DNA of 56,869 nucleotides from Rhodothermales bacterium. GTDB taxonomy: Bacteria; Bacteroidota; Rhodothermia; Rhodothermales; JBHHWM01. The DNA lies in NCBI GenBank assembly GCA_046756545.1, contig JBHHWM010000003.1, positions 1 through 56,869 of the forward strand. Direction: 5' to 3'. Positions within the stretch are counted from its first letter, which is position 1, and each line of letters opens with the position of its first letter. The notes beneath the pieces were generated by a model that had not been told where the DNA came from, did no database searches, and saw only the letters and a program-made list of their open reading frames with translations. Positions 3,190 to 45,663 of this stretch are shown piece by piece. A program made the translations under genes and the position numbers.

Positions 3190-3957
3190 ATGCCTCATCC
3201 CATGCCCTCGACAGACATCCCCCGGCGAGACGCTACCGGTAAGCTGTTGCTGGTCGAAGACGAGATGACGCTGGCCGGCCCGGTCATGCGCGGCCTCGAA
3301 GAAGAAGGCTATACCGTGGACCTGGCCCAGGACGGCCTCGACGGTGAAGCGCGGGCGCTCAACGAGACCTATGACGTGCTGATCATCGACTGGCGCCTGC
3401 CTCGTCTGGACGGGCGGACACTCATCGAACGGCTCCGCAAACAAGGCTATACCCGGCCCATCTTGATGTTGACGGCTCTCCGCGATGTCGATCATAAAGT
3501 CGCAGGGCTGGATGCGGGAGCCGACGACTACCTCACCAAGCCCTTTTCCTTCGAGGAGTTGATGGCCCGGCTGCGGGCGTTGCTCCGGTGCCACCCGGCT
3601 CCCGCTCCCCTTCCTGCCGACCTCCGGCCCGTCCATTTGCACACCGGCCCCCTGGAGATAGACACGGCCCGGCGACAAGTTTTTTACAAACAGACCCCCC
3701 TCCCCCTCCGAACCAAGGAATACCTGCTGCTGGAACTCCTCCTGCGTCATCAAGGCCGGGTACTCTCCCGAAGTGTTATCGCCGAGCGTATCTGGGGATC
3801 GGTGTACGACGTGACCGACAATGCCATCGATGTCACCGTCTCCGGCCTGCGCCAAAAGCTGTCGGCTGCCGATCCGGTGCAGGGCGGCGTGACCGTAGAG
3901 ACCGTCCGGGGCGTTGGGTATTACTTGCGCGTGAACCCGGCTTCCGAGGGTTCCTGA
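3190..3957 (+). CDS. OmpR-family DNA-binding response regulator (CusR/CzcR-like)
   Basis: LLLVEDE, IIDWRLPRLDG, LDAGADDYLTKPF and winged-helix VTVSGLRQKL...TVRGVGY. Confidence 0.95.
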   Translation: MPHPMPSTDIPRRDATGKLLLVEDEMTLAGPVMRGLEEEGYTVDLAQDGLDGEARALNETYDVLIIDWRLPRLDGRTLIERLRKQGYTRPILMLTALRDVDHKVAGLDAGADDYLTKPFSFEELMARLRALLRCHPAPAPLPADLRPVHLHTGPLEIDTARRQVFYKQTPLPLRTKEYLLLELLLRHQGRVLSRSVIAERIWGSVYDVTDNAIDVTVSGLRQKLSAADPVQGGVTVETVRGVGYYLRVNPASEGS

Positions 3958-3983
3958 ATCGCCATCATAAAACGAGTTACACT

Positions 3984-5399
3984 ATGTCCGGGCTTCGCCT
4001 TCCTATCTCGGTACGACTGACGTTCTGGTATGGTCTGAGTCTGCTCATCATCCTCTCGGTGTTTGTGGTGTTCCTCTACACGAGCTTTCACGTGAGCCTG
4101 CACCGGGACTTTAGCGAGCAGATGGACCGGGCGCAGCAACTGTTGCGGCCTGTAATCCAAACCGAAACGGAAACACCGGTACTGATCCCCTCAAGTGACA
4201 TCCGGTCGGTGGCCTACCAAACCGACGGTGCCGCTGGAACCTATGTGCGCCTGTTGTCGCCGGACGGGACCGTTCTGTACCAGAGTCCGAATTTCGACGG
4301 GCACCAGGACTTCCGGCCTTCGGTGCCCCTTATCGCGACGGAAGCGTCCTTCAACCATACGTGGGAGGGAGCCCCGGCCCGTTCTCGCTACACCCCGGTT
4401 CACATGCAGTCAGGAGCCCTGCGCGGATGGTTGGAGATCACCCGGCTGGAATCGGCCATCCACCGCGAGTTGCACCGGCTGGAGTGGCTGCTCGCCGTAG
4501 GCGTCGTGCTGGGCGTGCTCGTAGCCATCGGCAGCGGCTACAGCCCGGCACGGCGTGCCCTGCGGCCCGTGGCTATGCTCACCGAGGCAGCCAATGATAT
4601 TCGCGTTACGGACTTGAACCACCGTCTACCCACCGACTTCGGCATGCGCGATGAACTCACCGACCTGGCCGACACGTTCAACGCCATGCTGGGCCGGCTC
4701 CAGGCCTCCTTCGAACGGGGACGCCGGTTCCAGGCCGACGCTGCGCATGAAATGTTTACGCCCCTCTCCGCTACGCAGAGCGAGATCGACGTAGCGCTGC
4801 GTCGGCCCCGCGAAGCCGCCTACTATAAACAAACCTTGCAGACCGTACGCGACCACACCCGACGCGTCAGCGGGATCCTCGACGGGTTGCTTCGGCTGTC
4901 CAGAGCCGAAGCCATCGAGCATTCGCAGGCCAGGACGGTGAACCTGGCTGAACTCGCCCGTCAGCACCTGGATTATTACGCATCACACGCCGAAGCCGGG
5001 CAGATTGCCTTGCAGCACGAGGTGGAACCGGACGCCTTCGTGCTGGCCGATCCCGGCCACGTCGAGACGCTGCTCGCCAACCTGATCGACAACGCCATCA
5101 AATACACGCCGCCGGGCGGCACGGTCCGCGTATCGATACGCGTGGACGACGAAACCATCGAACTCACCGTCTCCGACTCCGGTATCGGTTTTGACACAAC
5201 AGAGCGCGCGCATCTGTTCGACCGGTTCTATCGCTCGGACCAACCTGCCGTGCGGCAAACCCATGGAAGCGGTCTCGGCCTCTCTATCGTGAAGGCTATC
5301 GTAGACGGCTACGACGGGCGTATCCAGGCGCACAGCGAGGGTCCCGGCAGGGGAAGCACCTTCATCGTGCGTTTTCCGCGCCTGCAAACAACGCGATGA
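3984..5399 (+). CDS. Sensor histidine kinase with HAMP domain (CusS/CzcS-like)
   Basis: Two TM helices, HAMP, ADAAHEMFTPL H-box, NLIDNAIKY, DSGIG, FDRFYR, GSGLGL; ATG at 3984 in frame with ORF 3588..5399. Confidence 0.93.
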   Translation: MSGLRLPISVRLTFWYGLSLLIILSVFVVFLYTSFHVSLHRDFSEQMDRAQQLLRPVIQTETETPVLIPSSDIRSVAYQTDGAAGTYVRLLSPDGTVLYQSPNFDGHQDFRPSVPLIATEASFNHTWEGAPARSRYTPVHMQSGALRGWLEITRLESAIHRELHRLEWLLAVGVVLGVLVAIGSGYSPARRALRPVAMLTEAANDIRVTDLNHRLPTDFGMRDELTDLADTFNAMLGRLQASFERGRRFQADAAHEMFTPLSATQSEIDVALRRPREAAYYKQTLQTVRDHTRRVSGILDGLLRLSRAEAIEHSQARTVNLAELARQHLDYYASHAEAGQIALQHEVEPDAFVLADPGHVETLLANLIDNAIKYTPPGGTVRVSIRVDDETIELTVSDSGIGFDTTERAHLFDRFYRSDQPAVRQTHGSGLGLSIVKAIVDGYDGRIQAHSEGPGRGSTFIVRFPRLQTTR

Positions 5400-5472
5400 T
5401 GTTTCTCTTGTAAGCCACGACAACACAACGAAATAACCGCACGCAAATCGCCCGCCGTCCTCCCTGAATCCG

Positions 5473-5480
5473 TATATTGC
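5473..5480 (+). promoter_or_regulatory. Candidate Bacteroidota-type -7 promoter element (TATATTGC)
   Basis: Resembles TAnnTTTG; similar words at 16140-16147, 56628-56636 and (minus) 47469-47477, all upstream of gene starts. Confidence 0.3.
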
Positions 5481-5516
5481 GTTCGCCCTCTCACCCTTAC
5501 CTTCCGGGGTCCTCCT

Positions 5517-7088
5517 ATGCGCAAGCTCAACATTGGCGTTATCGACATTCTTGGCAAAACGACGAGCCGGCATCTCTTACGTCGCTTGAGGTCGCTGTTT
5601 ATACGGCCCAATAATCAGAGCATCATGCCGCAGGTCGTGGCCGTCTGGTGCGAAGAACTCGGCCACGACGTCTCGATGGCCTACTACAACGGCCCGGAGA
5701 TCATGGCCGGTGGCATCCCCGATGATGTCGACATGGTCTTTATCAACGCGTTCTCCCAAAATGCGTTGCTGGCCTACGCCCTGAGCAACTACTACCGCTC
5801 GAAGGGTGCCGTGACGGTCCTGGGCGGCCCCCATGCCCGCTCCTTTCCCGACGACACGATCAAATACTTCGACTATGCCGTCGGTTTCTGCGACAAAGAC
5901 CTGCTCGGCGACATCGTGCAAGACGGTGCGCCGCATCGCCCACGAGGACAATTTCTTTCGAGCCCGAAACAGCCCACACACCTACCCGGCGTGCGCCAGC
6001 GCTGGAAATTCATGACCCCCATCATGGAAAAAGCGCCGATGGTGAAGGCGATTCCGATGATCGGGAGCCTGGGCTGTCCCTACGTGTGCAGCTTCTGCAT
6101 CGACGCTCTGGTATCCTATCAGCCGCTGGAATTCGAGGCGTTGAAGGAAGACCTGCGCTTTGTCCTGAAGAACAAGCCGCCGCGCTCGCTCGTCGTCTGG
6201 CACGATCCCAACTTCGGGATCCGGTTCGACGACTACATGGGCCTCATCGAAGAGACCGTACCGCCGGGCCGCCTCACCTTTCTGGCCGAGATGTCGCTGT
6301 CGCTGTTGAAGGAGGAAAACGCCAGGCGGCTGGCGCGTAACGGCTTTAAGGCCCTCTTGCCGGGCATCGAGTCGTGGTACGACATGGGAGGGAAGTCGAA
6401 GTTGCGCTCGACGAAGGGCCTGGACAAGGTGAAACGCGTGGCCGATCAGGCCAACATGATCATGTCCTACATCCCCTACATGCAGGGCAACCTGATCTTC
6501 GGCCTCGACGCCGACGAAGGCCCCGAGCCGTTCGAACTGACGAAGCGGTTCGTCGATCTCGCGCCCGGCGTCTATCCCTATTTTTCACTCCTGACGGCAT
6601 TCGGACGTAATGCGCCGGACAACCTGGACTATCAACGCGAGGGGCGGGTGCTCAACATCCCGTTCCATTTCTTGAACCAGTTCCACGGGATGAACGTCCG
6701 TCCCAAAAACTATTCGTGGACGGCGTTCTACGATCACGTGTGCGATGCCTACGCGTATGCCTACTCCCGGGCGGCCATCACCAGGCGCTTCCGGGCAACC
6801 CGGCACCGGCCCACGCGCTACGAGCAACTCTTTCGCGGCCTGGCCTCCGAGCGCAAGTATAAGTTTGGCCATCACCTCAAGCTCCGGAAGCATCTGAATG
6901 ACCCCGCCACGCGGCGCTATTTCGACGGCGAGACGACGACGCTCCCGGCGTTCTATGTAGAAACGATCCGGCGCGACCTGGGGCCGCTCTGGGCGTGGCT
7001 GCCCGAAGGAGCCCTCTATCACAACCCCAATGCCTACCTCGATACCCTGAACGAAACGCCGGTGCCCGTACCGGCTCCCATGACGTGA
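5517..7088 (+). CDS. B12-binding-domain radical SAM protein
   Basis: GCPYVCSFC (CX3CX2C) cluster motif, N-terminal cobalamin-binding fold with TVLGGPHA, LIFGLDAD. Confidence 0.9.
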   Translation: MRKLNIGVIDILGKTTSRHLLRRLRSLFIRPNNQSIMPQVVAVWCEELGHDVSMAYYNGPEIMAGGIPDDVDMVFINAFSQNALLAYALSNYYRSKGAVTVLGGPHARSFPDDTIKYFDYAVGFCDKDLLGDIVQDGAPHRPRGQFLSSPKQPTHLPGVRQRWKFMTPIMEKAPMVKAIPMIGSLGCPYVCSFCIDALVSYQPLEFEALKEDLRFVLKNKPPRSLVVWHDPNFGIRFDDYMGLIEETVPPGRLTFLAEMSLSLLKEENARRLARNGFKALLPGIESWYDMGGKSKLRSTKGLDKVKRVADQANMIMSYIPYMQGNLIFGLDADEGPEPFELTKRFVDLAPGVYPYFSLLTAFGRNAPDNLDYQREGRVLNIPFHFLNQFHGMNVRPKNYSWTAFYDHVCDAYAYAYSRAAITRRFRATRHRPTRYEQLFRGLASERKYKFGHHLKLRKHLNDPATRRYFDGETTTLPAFYVETIRRDLGPLWAWLPEGALYHNPNAYLDTLNETPVPVPAPMT

Positions 7089-7104
7089 CGGGAAGAGGGA
7101 TCGA

Positions 7105-8262
7105 TCAGAAATAAAACTGAAGGGCACCAAAGAAGACATGCTCTTGCGCTCCGAACTCGGTGTCGCTCTTGCCGATGAAGAAGTACGTGCTGGCAAGCAG
7201 GTCCAGGTTCTCGGCCAATGAGTACGTAAACGAAGGACCGATGAGGCTGCTCTGGTCGTCCAGGTTAACGAGGCTGTAGGCCGCACCGCTCAGCAACGGC
7301 GTGATGGACCTGGCCACCGACGCAGCCAGATAGTCCCGCGCCACATTGAACGTTTCGCCGGCCAGGAGTGCCGCCACGTCGTACTGGCCCTTGTCGCGTG
7401 TGCCCTGGCCGTTGTAATACCATTCCACGAGCACGTAGTAGCCGCCGGAAAACGTATAGTCGGCATTCAGCACGGCGCGCAGGTGATTGCGGCCGTCCTG
7501 CTTCCAGGTATAGGCCACCTCGCCGCGAAAACCGGCATTGCCCAGGTATCCGGCGAAATCGCCCCCCAGCACCCAGTCGTCGCGGAAAAGCCCGCCCATC
7601 ACCGACACGTCGTATTCGCGCCAGTTGGTACTGGCCCGGAGCGCAGCGCTGGTCCGGTCGCGGTGGCGGCCCGGTGCCACGACGGCCTCGACGCGGGAGA
7701 AGGCTCCCAGCGGAATCGCTACGTAGGCGGCATCGACCCCTGCTTTCTCTCCCAGTTCGATGGCGCTCGGGTTGAACGGGTTCAGCACGTCCGTCGGGTT
7801 CCAGGCAAAGCCGGTGCCCCAGGCAATACGCTGGCGTCCCACGGTCACCTGGGTTTGCCCGAGGTACAGCGTGGCAAAAGCCCGAAAAAATTGCTGGCGC
7901 AGGTGATACCGTTTGCCCTCTGCCACCTTCCAGTCGAGATCGAAGAACGTAGGGCGCTCCAACGACTGGCCCAGGGCAAACTCCGGCGTATCCAGAAAGC
8001 TACCGAGGAGCAACTCGGTATCGAGCCAGAGTTCGGCGTGGAAGCCTCCGCCCACGCCGAGCAACCCCTGTGCGCGTAGCCGGCTGATATCCAGCAGGTA
8101 GGCCTCGTTCGAAAGGATCGACGAGGAGCGAATGCCGAGGTTCTTGGCATATCCCCGGAGTTCCAGCGTCGTTTGCGCTGCGGCCCCCGTCCCTCCCCCC
8201 GACAGCATCCCGACCAGGACCCCGAGAAAGCAGCAGATGCTATACCGAACCGACCTCGTCAT
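7105..8262 (-). CDS. Outer-membrane beta-barrel protein associated with Lol-like ABC system
   Basis: Signal peptide, VGRQRIAWGTG...NPTD, alternating aromatic strands, C-terminal LQFYF. Confidence 0.75.
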   Translation of the reverse strand: MTRSVRYSICCFLGVLVGMLSGGGTGAAAQTTLELRGYAKNLGIRSSSILSNEAYLLDISRLRAQGLLGVGGGFHAELWLDTELLLGSFLDTPEFALGQSLERPTFFDLDWKVAEGKRYHLRQQFFRAFATLYLGQTQVTVGRQRIAWGTGFAWNPTDVLNPFNPSAIELGEKAGVDAAYVAIPLGAFSRVEAVVAPGRHRDRTSAALRASTNWREYDVSVMGGLFRDDWVLGGDFAGYLGNAGFRGEVAYTWKQDGRNHLRAVLNADYTFSGGYYVLVEWYYNGQGTRDKGQYDVAALLAGETFNVARDYLAASVARSITPLLSGAAYSLVNLDDQSSLIGPSFTYSLAENLDLLASTYFFIGKSDTEFGAQEHVFFGALQFYF

Positions 8263-38657: not shown

Positions 38658-38961
38658 CCCATCCCTCCGTCGATGGAAAGAACACCGTCGAGGTCGCTGT
38701 GTGTATTCGTCGATTCATCGTTTCCTCGATTCCACAGGGCGACCGGAGAGCACAACGGGAGGTCTTGTTGCACGGCACGCGCCCCGGTTCTTCGCCTGCG
38801 TTAAGAAACCAGGACGCTTACAAAAACGTCTCCCTCGTTGCGTAACAGGTACAAGAAGCGGTGTACTAAACAACGACCCTCCCGGACCGGCTCACTACGT
38901 AATCACGCCGTTCGACCTCCGGGACCTGACCGCCACACTGAGACTACCCGGCTCGAAGCTC

Positions 38962-39912
38962 ATGCGCTTGTCCCGCCCCCTCCTTTCCACCGTTCGCGTC
39001 GTCTGCATCCTGAGCGTCCTCTGGTTGGCCGAGAGGCGGGATAGCCACGCCCAGGCCTGGTTGCAGCCCAAAGGACACGCCTACGTCAAGCTGTCGCATG
39101 GCCGCGCAACCGCCTCGGAGCAGTTCCGCTTCGACGGCGAAACCAAAGCCTACGCCGACAACGTCGACGGGGACGCATTTTTTGACCGCAGCTTCTACCT
39201 CTACGGCGAGTACGGACTGACGGACCAACTCACCGTGGTCGTCGTCCTGCCCTATAAATCCATTCGCGTGCTCGACGCCGCCTTCGAATACGAGACCGAG
39301 GGCGTGGGGTCCGTGATGATCGGCCTGCGCACCAGCATCAAGCACTGGATCGGCCTCACCGACGACCGACACACCCTCGCAGCGAACGTCATGCTTACCC
39401 TCCCCACCGGCTATACCCGTAACTTCACACCGTCGGTCGGTCCGGGGCAGGTCGATTTCCAGACGACGATCAACTACGGGCTGAGCCTCTATCCGATGCC
39501 CGGTTATGCCCAGATGGGACTCGGCTACCGCTACCGTTCGGCGTTCTACGGCCTCTCCGCCACTACCGCATGCCAGGAAGGCCGCGACGTGAACTGCTTT
39601 GCCTCGACCGAGCCGAAGTATGACGATGAACTCTTGTTCTCTGTCGAAATTGGTTTTAACTTTGATCGATGGGCGCTGGTGCAATTCCTGGGCCAGGGGG
39701 TGTGGTCGAACAAATCGCCGGATGCGGAGACGAGCTTTTCCGTGCGCAACCCCATTCCTACCCGGCAACGCTACATCAAAACCGGGGCCGGGCTGACGGT
39801 CTACCCGCTCCGTAAGCTGGGAGTGAGCGCGCAGGTTTTTTTCACGCCTTCCGGTCGTAACACCGTGCGTTCTACGGATTATTTCTTCGGGGTCGAATAC
39901 CGGCTGCCGTAG
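38962..39912 (+). CDS. Outer-membrane beta-barrel protein, uncharacterised
   Basis: Signal peptide ending HAQA, YGEYGLTD, LPTGY, amphipathic strands, C-terminal GVEYRLP; ATG at 38962. Confidence 0.75.
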   Translation: MRLSRPLLSTVRVVCILSVLWLAERRDSHAQAWLQPKGHAYVKLSHGRATASEQFRFDGETKAYADNVDGDAFFDRSFYLYGEYGLTDQLTVVVVLPYKSIRVLDAAFEYETEGVGSVMIGLRTSIKHWIGLTDDRHTLAANVMLTLPTGYTRNFTPSVGPGQVDFQTTINYGLSLYPMPGYAQMGLGYRYRSAFYGLSATTACQEGRDVNCFASTEPKYDDELLFSVEIGFNFDRWALVQFLGQGVWSNKSPDAETSFSVRNPIPTRQRYIKTGAGLTVYPLRKLGVSAQVFFTPSGRNTVRSTDYFFGVEYRLP

Positions 39913-39988: not shown

Positions 39989-41221
39989 ATGCCTACCCTA
40001 AGCCCCCAACCAACCCGTGCGCGGGTTGCATCCTGTGTTTTCCTGTTCTTGATGCTGTCGTTCGGAACGCCCGTTCGAGCGACGGCCCAGGACGTCGGCC
40101 TCGACGCCTTAGAACAGCAGGTCGTCGACCTGTTCGAACGGAGCTGTGCCCGCTCAGGCTGCCACGCCGGCCCCGTGCCGCAGCAAGGCATGATGCTGAC
40201 CCGGGATCAGTTCTATGCCTCGATTGTCGGCGAGCCCAGCCGGGAACGGCCTGCCTTACAACGCGTCCACCCCGGCCAACCCGAGATCAGCTACCTCGTC
40301 ATGAAAGTCAAGGGAGCCCCAGGCATCATCGGAAGCCGGATGCCGCTCGCCGGCGACGGGCTCTCGGACGAAGACATACGGACCATTGAACAATGGATCG
40401 CCCGCCTCGACGAGGTAGACGAACGCCGCAAGCAACAAGTAACAGCCTCCGAACCCTATCCTTTCGACGGCTGGAAAATCATCAATCTACCGACCACGCG
40501 GGCCCTCGATGCGGGCAGCGTCCTCTTTCTCATCGGCCACCGTTTCAACCCCAAGATCAGCGACGGATACGATGCCCTCTTCGGCCTCGACGGCAGCGGC
40601 ATCATCTACCTGAGTGTGGGCCATGCCCTGACGGATGATTTTCTCATTGCGCTGGGCCGGAGCAACGCTTCCGACAACGTCGAACTCCAGGCTCGATACC
40701 GGATAGCGCGTCAGGATGGACCGCGCAGGTGGCCCGTTGCGGTTAGCGCGCAGGCGGCCGTCAACTGGATCTCGGAGAAGCCGCCGGGAGAAAGCCGTTA
40801 CCGGAGCGAAGCCTTTAAGTTCACCGGCCAGGTGAGTCTGGCACGCGAGATAGCGCCGGGCGTCGGCGTGGCCGTCGTGCCCGGTCTTCTGATCAATCCT
40901 GCCGAAAACGTCGAAGGAGAAGACCCGATGGTTACGCTGGGGCTGGGAGGGCGCTGGCGGTTTTACCGGAATCTCTCGCTCGTCGGCGAGTGGGTCCCCA
41001 TCCTTTCCGGGTTCACACGAACGACGACCTTCGGCAACGACATTCGCTTCGATAGCTGGGGCGGCGGCCTCGAAATCACGACCGGGGGCCATGTCTTCCA
41101 GATCGTGGTCAGCAACACCGTCGGGCTCACGACGGATCAGTACCTGCGTGGAGGCGACCTCGACATCACCGAAGGCGATCTACGCCTCGGGTTCAACATT
41201 TTCCGCATCCTGAACTTCTGA
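39989..41221 (+). CDS. Cytochrome-c-like (CX4CH) domain fused to DUF5777 beta-barrel
   Basis: Signal peptide; CARSGCH...SYL..K...RMP...QW domain; then LIGHRF, FGLD, TGGHVFQ, LGFNIFR typical of DUF5777. Confidence 0.82.
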   Translation: MPTLSPQPTRARVASCVFLFLMLSFGTPVRATAQDVGLDALEQQVVDLFERSCARSGCHAGPVPQQGMMLTRDQFYASIVGEPSRERPALQRVHPGQPEISYLVMKVKGAPGIIGSRMPLAGDGLSDEDIRTIEQWIARLDEVDERRKQQVTASEPYPFDGWKIINLPTTRALDAGSVLFLIGHRFNPKISDGYDALFGLDGSGIIYLSVGHALTDDFLIALGRSNASDNVELQARYRIARQDGPRRWPVAVSAQAAVNWISEKPPGESRYRSEAFKFTGQVSLAREIAPGVGVAVVPGLLINPAENVEGEDPMVTLGLGGRWRFYRNLSLVGEWVPILSGFTRTTTFGNDIRFDSWGGGLEITTGGHVFQIVVSNTVGLTTDQYLRGGDLDITEGDLRLGFNIFRILNF

Positions 41222-41234
41222 ACAGCCCCCCGAC

Positions 41235-41657
41235 ATGATGCCCCCCTTTCGAAACCGTCTTGTCTCTTTGATCTTGTTGACCTTGCTTACGGCGAGCTGC
41301 GAACACGTCGGACCGCTGGAACGGATCCCTCTGGAACCCACGCTGACGAGTATTCAGGCTAACATTTTCAGCACCAACTGTGCGCTTTCGGGCTGCCACG
41401 CAGGAGCCGCTCCCCAGCAGGGCATGAACCTGAGCGAGGGACAGGCTCACGCAAATGTCGTGAACGTCCGCAGCCGGGAGAGACCCGATCTTTTCCGCGT
41501 AGCGCCGGGCAGCCCGGACAGCAGCTATCTCTTCTTGAAAATCACCGGAGCACCCGGCATCGTGGGCGAACGCATGCCGCGCGGACGAGCCCCGCTCTCC
41601 GCCGAGCAAATCAGCGCCGTCCGCCAGTGGATTGCCGACGACGCACTCGATAATTGA
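41235..41657 (+). CDS. Cytochrome-c-like lipoprotein (CX4CH)
   Basis: Lipobox LTASC, CALSGCH, distal RMP; 41/67 identical without gaps to the N-terminal domain of 39989..41221. Confidence 0.82.
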   Translation: MMPPFRNRLVSLILLTLLTASCEHVGPLERIPLEPTLTSIQANIFSTNCALSGCHAGAAPQQGMNLSEGQAHANVVNVRSRERPDLFRVAPGSPDSSYLFLKITGAPGIVGERMPRGRAPLSAEQISAVRQWIADDALDN

Positions 41658-42066: not shown

Positions 42067-43191
42067 ATGAAAAACCGGTCGATGACCCGGCGTACGTTTC
42101 TTCAGCGAGCAGGCGGTATCGCCGTCGGCCTGGGCTTTGTGCCGCTCGGCGGCTGTGAGACCATCACGGTCACCCCGCGCATCACGGGCGGCGATGTAGC
42201 CTTCCTGTCTCCCCTCGACCTCGACCCGGCACAGGGCGGCTTCTACGTCGAAAACGGGGCGGAAGGCGCTATCGGCGGCTGGACGATGCCGGACCTCGAC
42301 CCGGCGACCTGGTCGCTGACCATCGACGGCCTCGTAGCCACCCCGCTGACGCTCGGCCTGGCCGACCTGGAAGCCGAACCCGCCGTGACGCTCCTCAAAA
42401 CGATGCGCTGCATCACCGACTCGAACGAGTTCCCCGGCCTGATCGGCACAACGCTCTGGAGCGGCATCCCCCTGCGCCTGTTCCTCGACCGCGCCGGCAT
42501 CGACCGCACCCGTGCGCACCGCTTGCGCATCTACGGCACGGACGGCTTCACCAACAACCTCAAGCTCGACGACGTCTACCGCGACTTCGGCCCCGACGAG
42601 TTCGAGCCGATGCTCGCCACGCACATGAACGGCCGGCCTCTCACCCGCGAACACGGACGGCCCGCACGCCTGTTCGTCTTCAACGATTACGGCTATCGAA
42701 GCGTGAAGTGGATCGCACGCATCGAGGCGACGGAGAGCGACGAGGTGTTCGGCACCTACCAGCAAGTGCTGGGCTTCTCGGACGACAGCGTCATCCGGGT
42801 ATCCAGCAAGATCACCAACCCGGTCTTCAACCAGGTGCTGCCTGCCGGAACGATGCTGGTCTCGGGCTTTGCGGTCAGCGGGTTCGGGGCCGTCACCAGG
42901 GTCGAGGTATCCTTCGACGGCGGTCCTTTTCAACCTGCTCGCCTCGTGCCGTTCGACGAGTTATTGACCGACGAACCCGACCTGGCCCACGCTCGCCAGG
43001 TGGCAAACGGGCTGGCCTTTCCGTTCCGCTCCGTATGGGTAAAATGGACCATTCGCTGGGACGCTACGCCCGGCACCCATGAGATCCGCGTGCGTGCCAC
43101 CGACGCTGCCGGCAACATCCAGGAAGACAACGACTTTACGTTTGAAGACGGGTTCAACCCGATCCCCGCCGTCACCGTCACGGTGGAATAA
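42067..43191 (+). CDS. Sulfite-oxidase-family molybdopterin oxidoreductase with Tat lipoprotein signal
   Basis: MTRRTFL...LGGC, TMRC Mo-ligand Cys, WSGIPL, HGRPARL, SVKWI, dimerisation domain RVEVSFDGG...RATDAAGN. Confidence 0.9.
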   Translation: MKNRSMTRRTFLQRAGGIAVGLGFVPLGGCETITVTPRITGGDVAFLSPLDLDPAQGGFYVENGAEGAIGGWTMPDLDPATWSLTIDGLVATPLTLGLADLEAEPAVTLLKTMRCITDSNEFPGLIGTTLWSGIPLRLFLDRAGIDRTRAHRLRIYGTDGFTNNLKLDDVYRDFGPDEFEPMLATHMNGRPLTREHGRPARLFVFNDYGYRSVKWIARIEATESDEVFGTYQQVLGFSDDSVIRVSSKITNPVFNQVLPAGTMLVSGFAVSGFGAVTRVEVSFDGGPFQPARLVPFDELLTDEPDLAHARQVANGLAFPFRSVWVKWTIRWDATPGTHEIRVRATDAAGNIQEDNDFTFEDGFNPIPAVTVTVE

Positions 43192-45663
43192 TCATTCCAA
43201 TGATCCATCGGGAGACACCACCTGACTTTCTTCGCATTCAGGATTGTGCACCGTCCGAGGAGTACACATCGAAAGCGAAGCCGCCAGGTCCTGGGAACGC
43301 ACCGGCTTGCTGATATAGTCGTCCATCCCGGCTTCCAGATACTGCTCGGCATCACCCGGCATGGCGTTGGCGGTCAGGGCAATGATGCGGGGCCGGTCGG
43401 CAGGCTCCCACGTTTCCCGAATGAGTCGGGTAGCTTCCAGCCCATCCATCTCCGGCATATGAATGTCCATGAGCACCACGTCGTACGCCTGCCGTCGTAA
43501 GGCATCGAGCACCTCCAGACCGTTGGCCGCCACGTCCGCCCGATAGCCCAATCGCTCCAACAGACGCAGCGCCACTTTCTGATTGACGAGATTATCTTCG
43601 GCCAGCAACACGCGTAACGGCACTACCTCAGCCTGCTCGTCGGGCCGATGAACGGGGATCGACGCTGCGGACGCATCGACGCCTCCCTGCGACGTGAGCG
43701 CCGCTACGAGCACCTCATAGAACTGGCCTTGTTTAACGGGCTTGGTCAACCACGCAAAGAGCGACACCGCATGTGTTTTGATCGACGAGCCGGCTGAACT
43801 GAGCATGATCAACGGAAACGGCTTACCGTCGCCGTGTTTCGCGATTTCTTCCGCCAGCCTCAATCCGTCCATCTCGGGCATCTGCATGTCTAGAAGGGCC
43901 ACGTCATACGATTCACCCCGGTCGAGCCGGGCCAGCGCCTCCGGGCCGCCGGCCACGGCTATCGGTTGCATGCCCCAGGCTCGCGTCTGATGCACCAGGA
44001 TGCGCCGGTTGGTCGCATTATCGTCTACAATCAACACCCGTTTGTTCCGCAAAACGGGCTGTTCCCCGTTCCAGGGTGTTGTGGGTCGCTCGGCAGCCGA
44101 GGTAACCGTAATGGTGAAATAAAACGTCGATCCAGCCCCTTCTTCACTGTCAACGGACAGGCTGCCTCCCAGCATCTCGACGAGTCGTTTGCTGATGGCA
44201 AGGCCGAGGCCCGTCCCGCCGTACTTGCGCGTCATGGAAGAGTCCACCTGGCTGAACGATTTGAACAGACGATCCAGCCGCGCCCTGGGAATGCCGATGC
44301 CGGTATCGCGCACGGCAAAGCCCAGTTCGTATCGGTCCACCCCCGACAGCTTCGCCGTGACGTGCACGAACACCTCGCCTTCTTCGGTGAACTTGACCGC
44401 GTTCGAGAGCAGATTTGCCAGAATCTGCCGCAGGCGGGTTACATCCGTCACCACGATGTCCGGAACCTCGTCGTCGATATAGTAGAGCAGTTCGAGGCCT
44501 TTTTTGGAAGCCGTCACCACCACGAGATCGAGCGATTCCTCGACACAGGAACGCAACTCAAAGGGATACGCTTCGAACGTGAGCTTTCCCGCCTCAATCT
44601 TCGAGAAATCCAGAATGTCGTTGATGACGGCAAGCAGGGTGTCTCCCGAAGATCGAATGGTGTCCACAAAGTCGCGCTGCTCGGGCGAGAGGGGGGTGTC
44701 GAGCAACAGGGTAGTCATGCCGATGACGCCGTTCATGGGGGTACGTATCTCGTGGCTCATATTGGCCAGGAACTCGCTCTTGGCCTGGTTCGCCGCTTCC
44801 GCCGCCTCGACCGCACGTACCAGCGCGGCCTCCGTCTTTTTCCGTTCGAAGACTTCCTGCTGCAACTCGCTCGTTCGGTCCCAGACGCGTTCTTCCAGTT
44901 CGTCATGGGCCCGGCGCAACGCGAGGTCCCGCTCGCGAATCTGGCGAAGCATATGATTGAAGCTTTCGATGAGCAGGCCCACTTCATCTTTCGACGAGGC
45001 TTCCACCAGCACGTCGGTCTTCCCTTCGGCCACTTCGCTCGCTGCTTGTTGCAGCTTCATGATCGGAGCAATTACGGTTCTCCGCGTCACCCACTGGGCA
45101 AGACCGAAAAGAAGCAACACCACCAATCCCATGACAAACGCGGCAACCCTCATCTCCATCACTTTCCGATCAACCCGTTCCAGGGAAAAACCGAGGATAA
45201 CGCGCCCCATATATTTGCCTCCCTTCTGCATGATGAAAGCATAGAGCAAGAAGCCCTGATGCTCCACCATGCCTCCCTGGGAGATGACCGAGGCCACATC
45301 AATGGCCAGGCTATCCGGATTGGTTACACTCAGCGTCGTGTTTTCTTCGTCAAGGATGGCGAGGTATCGTAAATCTTCATCCTGCTTCGTCCAACTGACG
45401 ACCCGTTCGAGCACCTGAAAATCTCCTGAATCAAGCGCATTCCCCACGCTCAGGGCCACCATCTCCGTCACCACTTCCACTTTATCCCGCATCGTATCGA
45501 TGATCTGGCGGCGTTGCTGTTCCGGGAAATACGAAAAGACGAGCACCCCGACAATCACCGCCGTCACCGTAGCCACCCCGAAGAGCTTGGCACGAAGAGG
45601 CAGGTCGAGATATTTCTGCGCTATGGGAAGAGTATCCGACGTCACGGGGGTTCGCAGGTCCAC
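43192..45663 (-). CDS. Hybrid sensor histidine kinase (TM-periplasmic-TM-HAMP-HisKA-HATPase-REC-REC)
   Basis: [32 protein letters not shown], two receiver domains, no Hpt. Confidence 0.94.

Follow-up and report, generated by a model that had tools for sequence, protein, structure and literature searches.

A 56,869-nucleotide stretch of DNA from a Rhodothermales bacterium (contig JBHHWM010000003.1, analysed as a whole and termed the window below) encodes, at 39989-41221 on the forward strand, a 410-residue open reading frame comprising a signal peptide, a cytochrome c-like domain, a linker and an outer-membrane β-barrel of the DUF5777 family. More than 100 bacterial species share this fusion, which had received no earlier study and which forms a large conserved clade within DUF5777 that usually works with a lipoprotein paralogue of its cytochrome domain. 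On balance, and with a confidence somewhat better than even, we favour a model in which the protein is a periplasmic cytochrome with a CX4CH haem-attachment motif, tethered to the outer membrane, that together with the lipoprotein paralogue provides the outer-membrane end of an electron relay. The initial annotation of the locus, made from the sequence alone, had listed a signal peptide, CARSGCH, RMP, a DUF5777 barrel and a C-terminal LGFNIFRILNF; its coordinates and all of these features are correct. Its proposal of a cytochrome and an outer-membrane barrel in a single chain is borne out by the DUF5777 match, by outer-membrane barrel fold matches and by class I cytochrome profile matches, all described below.

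To our knowledge, only one family of fused cytochrome-porins is known, Cyc2, and it underpins the recognition of neutrophilic iron oxidation in genomes. The protein described here is a second cytochrome-porin fusion, unrelated to the first. Its cytochrome domain would represent a monohaem class with probable His/Met ligation in which CX4CH is the normal motif, a class that is missed when cytochromes are counted by CXXCH only. These features would indicate redox chemistry not yet recognised at the outer membrane of heterotrophs abundant in sediments and the sea.

Architecture and conservation of the fusion

The protein begins with a Sec signal peptide (residues 1-33; 39989-40087), MPTLSPQPTRARVASCVFLFLMLSFGTPVRATA, in which a positively charged n-region, a hydrophobic core and an A-x-A cleavage site can be read from the sequence. 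Cleavage is predicted after A-T-A (…VRATA, followed by QD), which would leave Gln34, a residue nearly invariant among homologues, at the start of the mature protein. The class I cytochrome c-like domain that follows is helical and about 100 residues long (approximately residues 38-140; 40100-40408). It carries the CX4CH motif CARSGCH at residues 53-59 (Cys53, Cys58 and His59; 40145-40165) and, within R-M-P at residues 117-119, the candidate distal haem ligand Met118 with Pro119 (40340-40345); both elements are invariant. A charged linker of about 20 residues (141-158; 40409-40462), with a short helix at 145-149 in the AlphaFold 2 (AF2) model, separates the two domain matches. The remainder, residues 159-410 (40463-41221, including the stop codon), is the DUF5777 barrel of about 12 strands, which ends in ...LGFNIFRILNF with a C-terminal Phe. 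The Pfam family PF19089 (DUF5777) matches residues 159-407 with E 1.2e-45 and 156.1 bits against a cut-off of 23.1, spanning positions 1-246 of the 247 in the model, and a genome-wide search returned the same match.

Within a search space of 5.8 billion proteins, 592 matched the fusion. The best 120 of these are all about 385-455 residues long, all contain PF19089 and cover 84-100% of the query, nearly all of them at least 90%; where they have a name, it is 'DUF5777 family beta-barrel protein' or, from the Joint Genome Institute (JGI), 'mono/diheme cytochrome c family protein'. A survey of occurrence, which the initial annotation had proposed, was carried out as a scan of one genome per species and found the fusion encoded in 106 species. 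The carriers are mainly metagenome-assembled genomes (MAGs) of Rhodothermales, together with Salinibacteraceae, Krumholzibacteriia, Calditrichota, KSB1, Aminicenantales and some MAGs labelled Cytophagia. One carrier, Rhodocaloribacter litoris (P0105), is cultivated, which opens the family to direct tests. A frameshift or an assembly error, a concern raised at the outset, is excluded as the origin of the fusion by the 592 proteins of like architecture and the 106 species genomes that encode it.

Conservation is strongest at the putative haem site. Across 36 homologues at 56-72% identity, Cys53, Gly57, Cys58, His59, Met118 and Pro119 are invariant, as are about 50 positions in the barrel. CX4CH is present in 77 of the 79 complete fusions from genome contigs, with the consensus C-x-x-x-G-C-H, and CXXCH in one. 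Variants with two tandem cytochrome domains N-terminal to the barrel are found at five loci (L066, L072, L075, L084 and L086); in that of L072, one copy has CX4CH and the other CXXCH.

The N-terminal domain as a probable class I cytochrome c

Judged from sequence comparisons, there is a high probability that the N-terminal domain binds haem. Four independent lines favour its being a class I haem c domain, namely its tandem-copy relatives, orthologues with a canonical CXXCH, profile matches among solved structures and the maturation genes of the genome.

An exhaustive search with residues 36-150 against 1.84 billion representatives yielded 4466 representative clusters that contain the domain, 944 of them at E <= 1e-10. 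Many of these relatives have two to seven tandem copies combined with CHRD, PKD or Big_7 domains. Their copies use CXXCH or CX4CH interchangeably, occasionally CX3CH, and the multi-copy relatives score above the Pfam gathering thresholds for PSCyt1, Cytochrome_CBB3 and Cytochrom_C. Six large exported proteins (P0121, P0136, P0137, P0138, P0188 and P0223) illustrate this pattern, with two to seven domain copies alongside CHRD, PKD, Big_7 and CopC-like domains, and with CXXCH, CX3CH and CX4CH mixed within single proteins.

The same equivalence is seen among the fusions themselves. Two orthologues at 34-48% identity (P0184 and P0237) have a canonical CXXCH at the site of the CX4CH, aligned with a two-residue gap, and keep the His and the Met-Pro. 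It recurs in a 33-sequence alignment of the domain, in which Cys-Cys-His and Met-Pro are invariant. That this set of residues swaps with CXXCH implies covalent haem c, and neither a disulfide nor a transient binding site.

A profile built from the 33-sequence alignment was compared with all PDB sequences. The 39 sequences it matched are without exception class I cytochromes c (c6, c-552, c-551 and CcoP), with cytochrome c6 as the best match at E 8.9e-4. In this alignment, 'IF..CA--CHAG' of c6 pairs with 'iFeesCalsgCHag' of the domain profile, placing a two-residue insertion at the haem motif. The Met-ligand segment of c6, 'AMPAFGGRLSDEEIANVAAYV', pairs with 'rMPlggepLsaeeiatieeWi' of the profile, which covers the Met ligand and the C-terminal helix, and Met118-Pro119 aligns with 'AMPAF...LSDEEIANVAAYV' of c6. 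Two further profile scores are sub-threshold: the C-terminal half of the SO2930 dihaem family (NCBIfam) matches the fusion domain at E 0.011, and the 140-residue paralogue scores 15 bits against Cytochrome_CBB3 (Pfam cut-off 27).

The genome encodes the System I cytochrome c maturation (Ccm) proteins CcmF, CcmC, CcmB and CcmE, as identified by Pfam. A 916-residue Cytochrom_C_asm frame was considered as CcsBA of System II and rejected on the Pfam matches to CcmF with CcmF_C, CcmC, CcmB and CcmE. The Ccm system of E. coli is reported to mature CX3CH and CX4CH variants.

Given the invariant residues, the exchange with CXXCH and the alignment with the Met ligand of c6, it is very likely that the CX4CH is a true haem c site with His/Met ligation, as the initial annotation had suggested. 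CX4CH is recognised as a site of covalent haem attachment, as in haem 3 of anammox hydrazine dehydrogenase (PMC6469936), and is included among the haem motifs listed in PMC11492766. The fusion shares this rare attachment motif with tetrahaem cytochrome c3 and with haem 3 of hydrazine dehydrogenase (PMC6469936). Unlike these bis-His, multihaem folds, it is monohaem and class I-like; its Met ligand is conserved, and the residue that precedes the second Cys is always Gly.

The DUF5777 barrel and its stand-alone relatives

The full-length AF2 model of the fusion has a mean predicted local distance difference test (pLDDT) score of 83 and a predicted template modelling (pTM) score of 0.71. Foldseek matched it to the 12-14-strand outer-membrane barrels FapF, OmpG, NanC, KdgM, COG4313, Tsx and LpxR at E 2e-6 to 1e-4, with probability 1.00 for the first six. 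With the C-terminal aromatic residue, these matches settle in favour of an outer-membrane barrel the question whether the C-terminal part is one. Twelve transmembrane strands were counted from the DSSP string of the model, and the C-terminal Phe is present in 24 of 43 homologues. The whole-model fold search was uninformative about the identity of the cytochrome domain, as the barrel dominated the matches.

The orientation of the barrel was taken from the usual rule that both termini are periplasmic. With this orientation, almost all invariant barrel residues would lie either in the half that faces outwards or in loops L1, L5 and L6, and the periplasmic turns would be variable. A simple porin or anchor would not usually be conserved in this way, and the pattern suggests that loops folding inwards form a specific site. 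The invariant His184 and His368 were considered as a bis-His site and rejected, as the DSSP topology puts His184 on the outer side, at the end of strand 1, and His368 on the periplasmic side, at the end of strand 11.

DUF5777 is present in 126 of the 301 sampled genomes of the phylum, nearly always as a barrel-only gene of about 285-330 residues that matches the Pfam model at E 1e-80 to 1e-99, compared with 1e-45 for the fusion. Thirty such loci (L092-L121) were surveyed with ±1.5 kb of flank. In 19 of them, the barrel gene is accompanied by one or two genes that match the cytochrome-domain profile and encode CXXCH or CX4CH, for the most part immediately upstream in the same orientation, and a YceI-like gene is found in 25; the order at L101:3-2298 is cytochrome, lipoprotein cytochrome, YceI and DUF5777. 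Like these operons, the fusion clade has the barrel motifs HRF, GLDG, GGHVFQ and RLGFNI and the same cytochrome domain family. Unlike them, it has the cytochrome fused to the barrel and usually lacks YceI, which occurs in 3 of 83 fusion loci. YceI as a universal partner thus holds for the barrel-only operons and was ruled out for the fusion clade. At L048, from a member of Calditrichia, a barrel-only operon (3716-5650, reverse strand; cytochrome, YceI and DUF5777) divergently adjoins a fusion operon (6028-7137, forward strand), and both types of module therefore coexist in one genome.

Since barrel-only DUF5777 genes have related cytochrome genes upstream, the fusion seems to record a conserved partnership. 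It can be read as a Rosetta stone, one polypeptide that documents a barrel-cytochrome association probably general for DUF5777, and it offers interaction evidence of this kind for a module found in about 40% of the phylum's sampled genomes. In a quick maximum-likelihood tree of barrel domains, 82 fusions fall on one side of a single branch, with a support of 91 in the Shimodaira-Hasegawa-like approximate likelihood ratio test (SH-aLRT), which is compatible with one fusion event. Our literature search found no paper mentioning DUF5777, in line with the earlier statement that the family has no established function, and the operon of cytochrome, YceI and DUF5777 appears to be undescribed.

The proposed electron relay and competing explanations

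Thirteen nucleotides after the fusion gene, at 41235-41657 on the forward strand, lies the gene of a paralogous 140-residue lipoprotein cytochrome c with a lipobox Cys22, CALSGCH at residues 49-55 and Met114-Pro115. It is 54% identical to the fused domain over 93 residues. A homologue of this lipoprotein lies directly downstream of the fusion in 55 of the 78 loci with room for one. All 56 lipoprotein copies examined have a signal peptide that ends in an x-[GAS]-C-E-H lipobox, 48 recognised by pattern and 8 by eye. In the window (41298-41312) and in 56 related loci, the lipidated Cys is followed by a near-universal E-H(-A-D), with the consensus C-E-H-A-D; this stretch could be a sorting signal or a ligand.

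We infer the following sequence of events from these features. After Sec export, the Ccm system would attach one haem c at the CX4CH motif, with His59 as the proximal and Met118 as the distal ligand, and the β-barrel assembly machinery (BAM) would insert the DUF5777 barrel of about 12 strands into the outer membrane. The haem domain would remain in the periplasm, tethered beneath the barrel by the linker of about 20 residues, because a holocytochrome of about 100 residues is too big for a 12-strand lumen. Of the two placements that had been suggested, in or under an outer-membrane channel, the second is therefore likely, as a periplasmic tether, and the first is not, for a full domain of this size. 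The fusion and its lipoprotein paralogue would form the outer-membrane end of a short periplasmic relay that swaps electrons with inner-membrane or periplasmic redox enzymes. In the window, its partner may be a Tat-exported molybdenum (Mo) enzyme of the sulfite oxidase family; in other lineages, this part may fall to a dihaem cytochrome c together with a Rieske/cytochrome b complex. The barrel with its conserved loops would supply or bind a redox partner, such as a small solute, a metal ion or a lipid-soluble carrier, and would not house the haem.

Several observations weigh against this model. In Pfam, the fusion itself falls short of the cytochrome cut-offs, with 12.3 bits for Cytochrome_CBB3 where 27 are needed (E 0.22). 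The domain-only AF2 model is confident (pLDDT 95.8); its best Foldseek match, hydrazine synthase alpha, is non-significant at E 0.16, followed by c6, c552, c551, SorU, OmcF and the cytochrome domain of cd1 nitrite reductase at E 1-10 and template modelling (TM) scores of 0.3-0.45. The position of the cytochrome under the barrel is derived from topology rules and size. A 12-strand barrel without a cofactor cannot itself move electrons across the membrane, which leaves the reaction partner of the haem unexplained, and most loci hold the fusion and the small cytochrome only, with no obvious redox enzyme nearby.

A more far-reaching version has, in our estimate, a minor chance of being correct. 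It holds that the DUF5777 barrel, the fused haem in the periplasm and the lipoprotein haem on the other face, or a cofactor in the conserved loops, constitute a minimal electron conduit across the outer membrane. Such a conduit would be widespread in the Fibrobacterota-Chlorobiota-Bacteroidota (FCB) group (Rhodothermota, Calditrichota, KSB1 and Bacteroidota), would share no homology with Cyc2 or Mtr, and would connect a bc-type complex or oxidoreductases of the periplasm with a redox partner in the outer membrane or outside the cell.

Alternatively, the two cytochromes may be dedicated acceptors of the Mo enzyme, in the role of SorB or SorU, with the barrel merely an outer-membrane anchor. The gene of this enzyme, at 42067-43191 on the forward strand (open from 41935), encodes a twin-arginine translocation (Tat) signal and matches Oxidored_molyb (E 8e-36) and Mo-co_dimer. 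Among solved structures, it comes closest to SorT, chicken sulfite oxidase, SoxC and SorA (E 1e-14 to 1e-11); for SorT and SorA, small cytochromes c serve as acceptors, and SorU is among the weak fold matches of the cytochrome domain. The Mo enzyme is in the same gene string as the fusion in the window and at L007, L025, L003, L013, L023, L027 and L017, and the arrangement resembles SorAB and SorTU in that a Tat-exported enzyme of the sulfite oxidase (SUOX) fold adjoins a small class I-type cytochrome c. However, the cytochromes of the window differ from those systems in belonging to a CX4CH subfamily, one as a lipoprotein and one fused to a barrel, and the linkage is confined to a minority of loci. 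The Mo enzyme co-occurs with the fusion in 7 of 83 loci, which rules it out as a universal partner, and the pair of fusion and small cytochrome is conserved without it. The enzyme also falls below every NCBIfam equivalog cut-off (SoxC 88.5/420, SorT 71.4/570, SorA 66.7/600 and MsrP 34.6/207), and from its sequence it would be assignable to the SUOX fold family only. A mere anchor, moreover, needs no barrel with about 50 invariant positions. This explanation is accordingly improbable.

A two-haem outer-membrane conduit is likewise improbable, and a little more so. Here, the fused haem would be periplasmic, the lipoprotein cytochrome would sit on the cell surface, and the barrel would hold both close via its loops or a threaded segment. 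Such an arrangement would account for the near-obligate pairing of fusion and lipoprotein, for the acidic C-E-H-A-D after the lipidated Cys in essentially all copies, for the extreme conservation of the predicted outward loops and for the link of the pair to a bc complex at some loci. Many lipoproteins of the FCB group are exported to the surface, and C-E-H-A-D loosely recalls the surface-export signals of Bacteroidota. Nevertheless, a barrel of about 25-30 Å with one haem per side exceeds the normal tunnelling distance unless an extra cofactor is present, and the same type of small cytochrome is also found away from barrels, beside a hydrogenase.

The comparison with Cyc2 bears on a further explanation, for which we see a slim chance, in which the fused haem, in or at the pore, oxidises Fe(II) or another reduced metal that has entered the barrel, with electrons passing through the small cytochrome to a bc complex or oxidase. 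The gross architecture agrees, with a signal peptide, one haem and a C-terminal barrel, as do the downstream small cytochrome and, in some lineages, the Rieske/cytochrome b complex. Loci of this composition resemble the cyc2-cyc1 and pet operons of iron oxidisers. Against it, the cytochrome of about 100 residues is too large for a 12-strand lumen, and the hosts (Rhodothermales, Calditrichota and KSB1) are not known iron oxidisers. The hallmarks of Cyc2 are a single CXXCH, AXPXFAR[Q/K][T/Y] five residues upstream, PXL downstream, a short cytochrome region and a 16-strand OprO/OprP-like porin (PMC8406198). In the fusion, by contrast, PXFAR[QK][TY] is found in 0 of 43 homologues and a nearby PXL in 1 of 43; there are about 12 strands, not 16, and OprO/OprP are absent from the top 50 Foldseek matches. 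A literature search on Cyc2 in Rhodothermales found nothing relevant.

Likeness to Cyc2, as proposed initially, thus ends with the gross layout, and none of the sequence or structural hallmarks of Cyc2 was found. Like Cyc2 of Acidithiobacillus and Mariprofundus PV-1 (PMC8406198), the fusion has a signal peptide, an N-terminal single haem c domain and a C-terminal outer-membrane barrel, and is encoded alongside a small periplasmic cytochrome. It differs in having no sequence relationship to Cyc2, in its CX4CH in place of CXXCH, in its full class I domain of about 100 residues in place of a short one, in its DUF5777 barrel of about 12 strands and in its hosts, which are FCB-group heterotrophs. 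The suggestion that the architecture was built independently of Cyc2 stands.

Similarities also extend to MtrCAB, PioAB/MtoAB and the Geobacter Pcc systems, in which an outer-membrane barrel is coupled genetically, and probably physically, to c-type cytochromes, some of them lipoproteins. In those systems, however, barrels of 20-26 strands sheathe separate multihaem cytochromes of 8-12 haems, whereas the fusion has one haem motif per protein, a barrel of about 250 residues that is too small to sheathe a cytochrome, and a covalent link between the two. The fusion arose independently of Cyc2 and is a member of neither Cyc2 nor Mtr/Pio/Pcc.

A non-redox role, in which the CX4CH domain is a module for binding haem, porphyrin or metal, or is held by a structural disulfide, and serves a DUF5777 transporter of haem, copper or a hydrophobic molecule, is very unlikely. 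MbnP and a MauG-like peroxidase, both linked to copper acquisition, in one type of cluster, the lipid-binding YceI proteins of the barrel-only loci and the presence of COG4313 and other hydrophobic-solute channels among the barrel fold matches are consistent with it. Yet the interchange of Cys-Cys-His and Met-Pro with CXXCH is the signature of covalent haem c, the domain occurs in tandem multi-copy arrays typical of electron-transfer cytochromes, and some operons contain bc-complex genes. Least credible is autotransporter-like display, in which the 12-strand barrel would move the cytochrome to the cell surface: an N-terminal passenger before a C-terminal barrel of about 12 strands, and NalP, EstA, AaaA and intimin among the fold matches, are suggestive of it, but the Pfam scan of the fusion at E up to 1 contains no type Va or other autotransporter family, the similarity to NalP and EstA is that of generic barrels, most DUF5777 barrels have no passenger, and autotransporters are ill suited to exporting a folded holocytochrome whose haem is covalently bound.

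Neighbouring genes and operon contexts

Upstream of the fusion, at 38959-39912 on the forward strand, lies the gene of a second exported protein of 317 residues, whose sequence looks barrel-like and which may be accessory. It has no Pfam, NCBIfam or PDB match, and in 5 loci its homologues are found together with the Mo enzyme and the fusion. The Mo enzyme and the barrel-like protein are encountered again as a set in 5-7 Rhodothermales loci, some of which also encode MbnP and a MauG-like peroxidase. An alternative gene order is found at L003:2067-5962, and also at L013, L023 and L027, where a small cytochrome, an unclassified barrel, MbnP, a MauG-like dihaem peroxidase and the SUOX-family Mo enzyme precede the fusion. 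This order hints at a copper or peroxide connection.

A hybrid histidine kinase is encoded at 43192-45663 on the reverse strand of the window, convergent to the Mo enzyme gene. Eight other loci have a related kinase no more than 6 kb from the fusion, and the kinase is a possible regulator.

In a deep clade of KSB1 and unclassified genomes, the genes after the fusion encode the lipoprotein cytochrome, a dihaem cytochrome c of about 210 residues, a Rieske protein and a cytochrome b that carries two fused cytochrome c domains. Thirteen loci have the dihaem cytochrome; in 7 of them a Rieske protein comes next, and 5 of these 7 also have the cytochrome b fusion. An example of this complex III-like operon is L081:5881-10837, from a KSB1 MAG, with others at L065, L067, L069 and L071.

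The third copy of the domain in the genome that contains the window stands alone as a 138-residue protein with CX4CH, on contig C29 of this genome, G000 (L091:7497-7913, forward strand). It adjoins a HycI-type maturation protease and is divergent from a [NiFe] hydrogenase operon that encodes a small subunit, a large subunit and a cytochrome b. All of these partner contexts of the fusion and its paralogues are respiratory or concern periplasmic redox.

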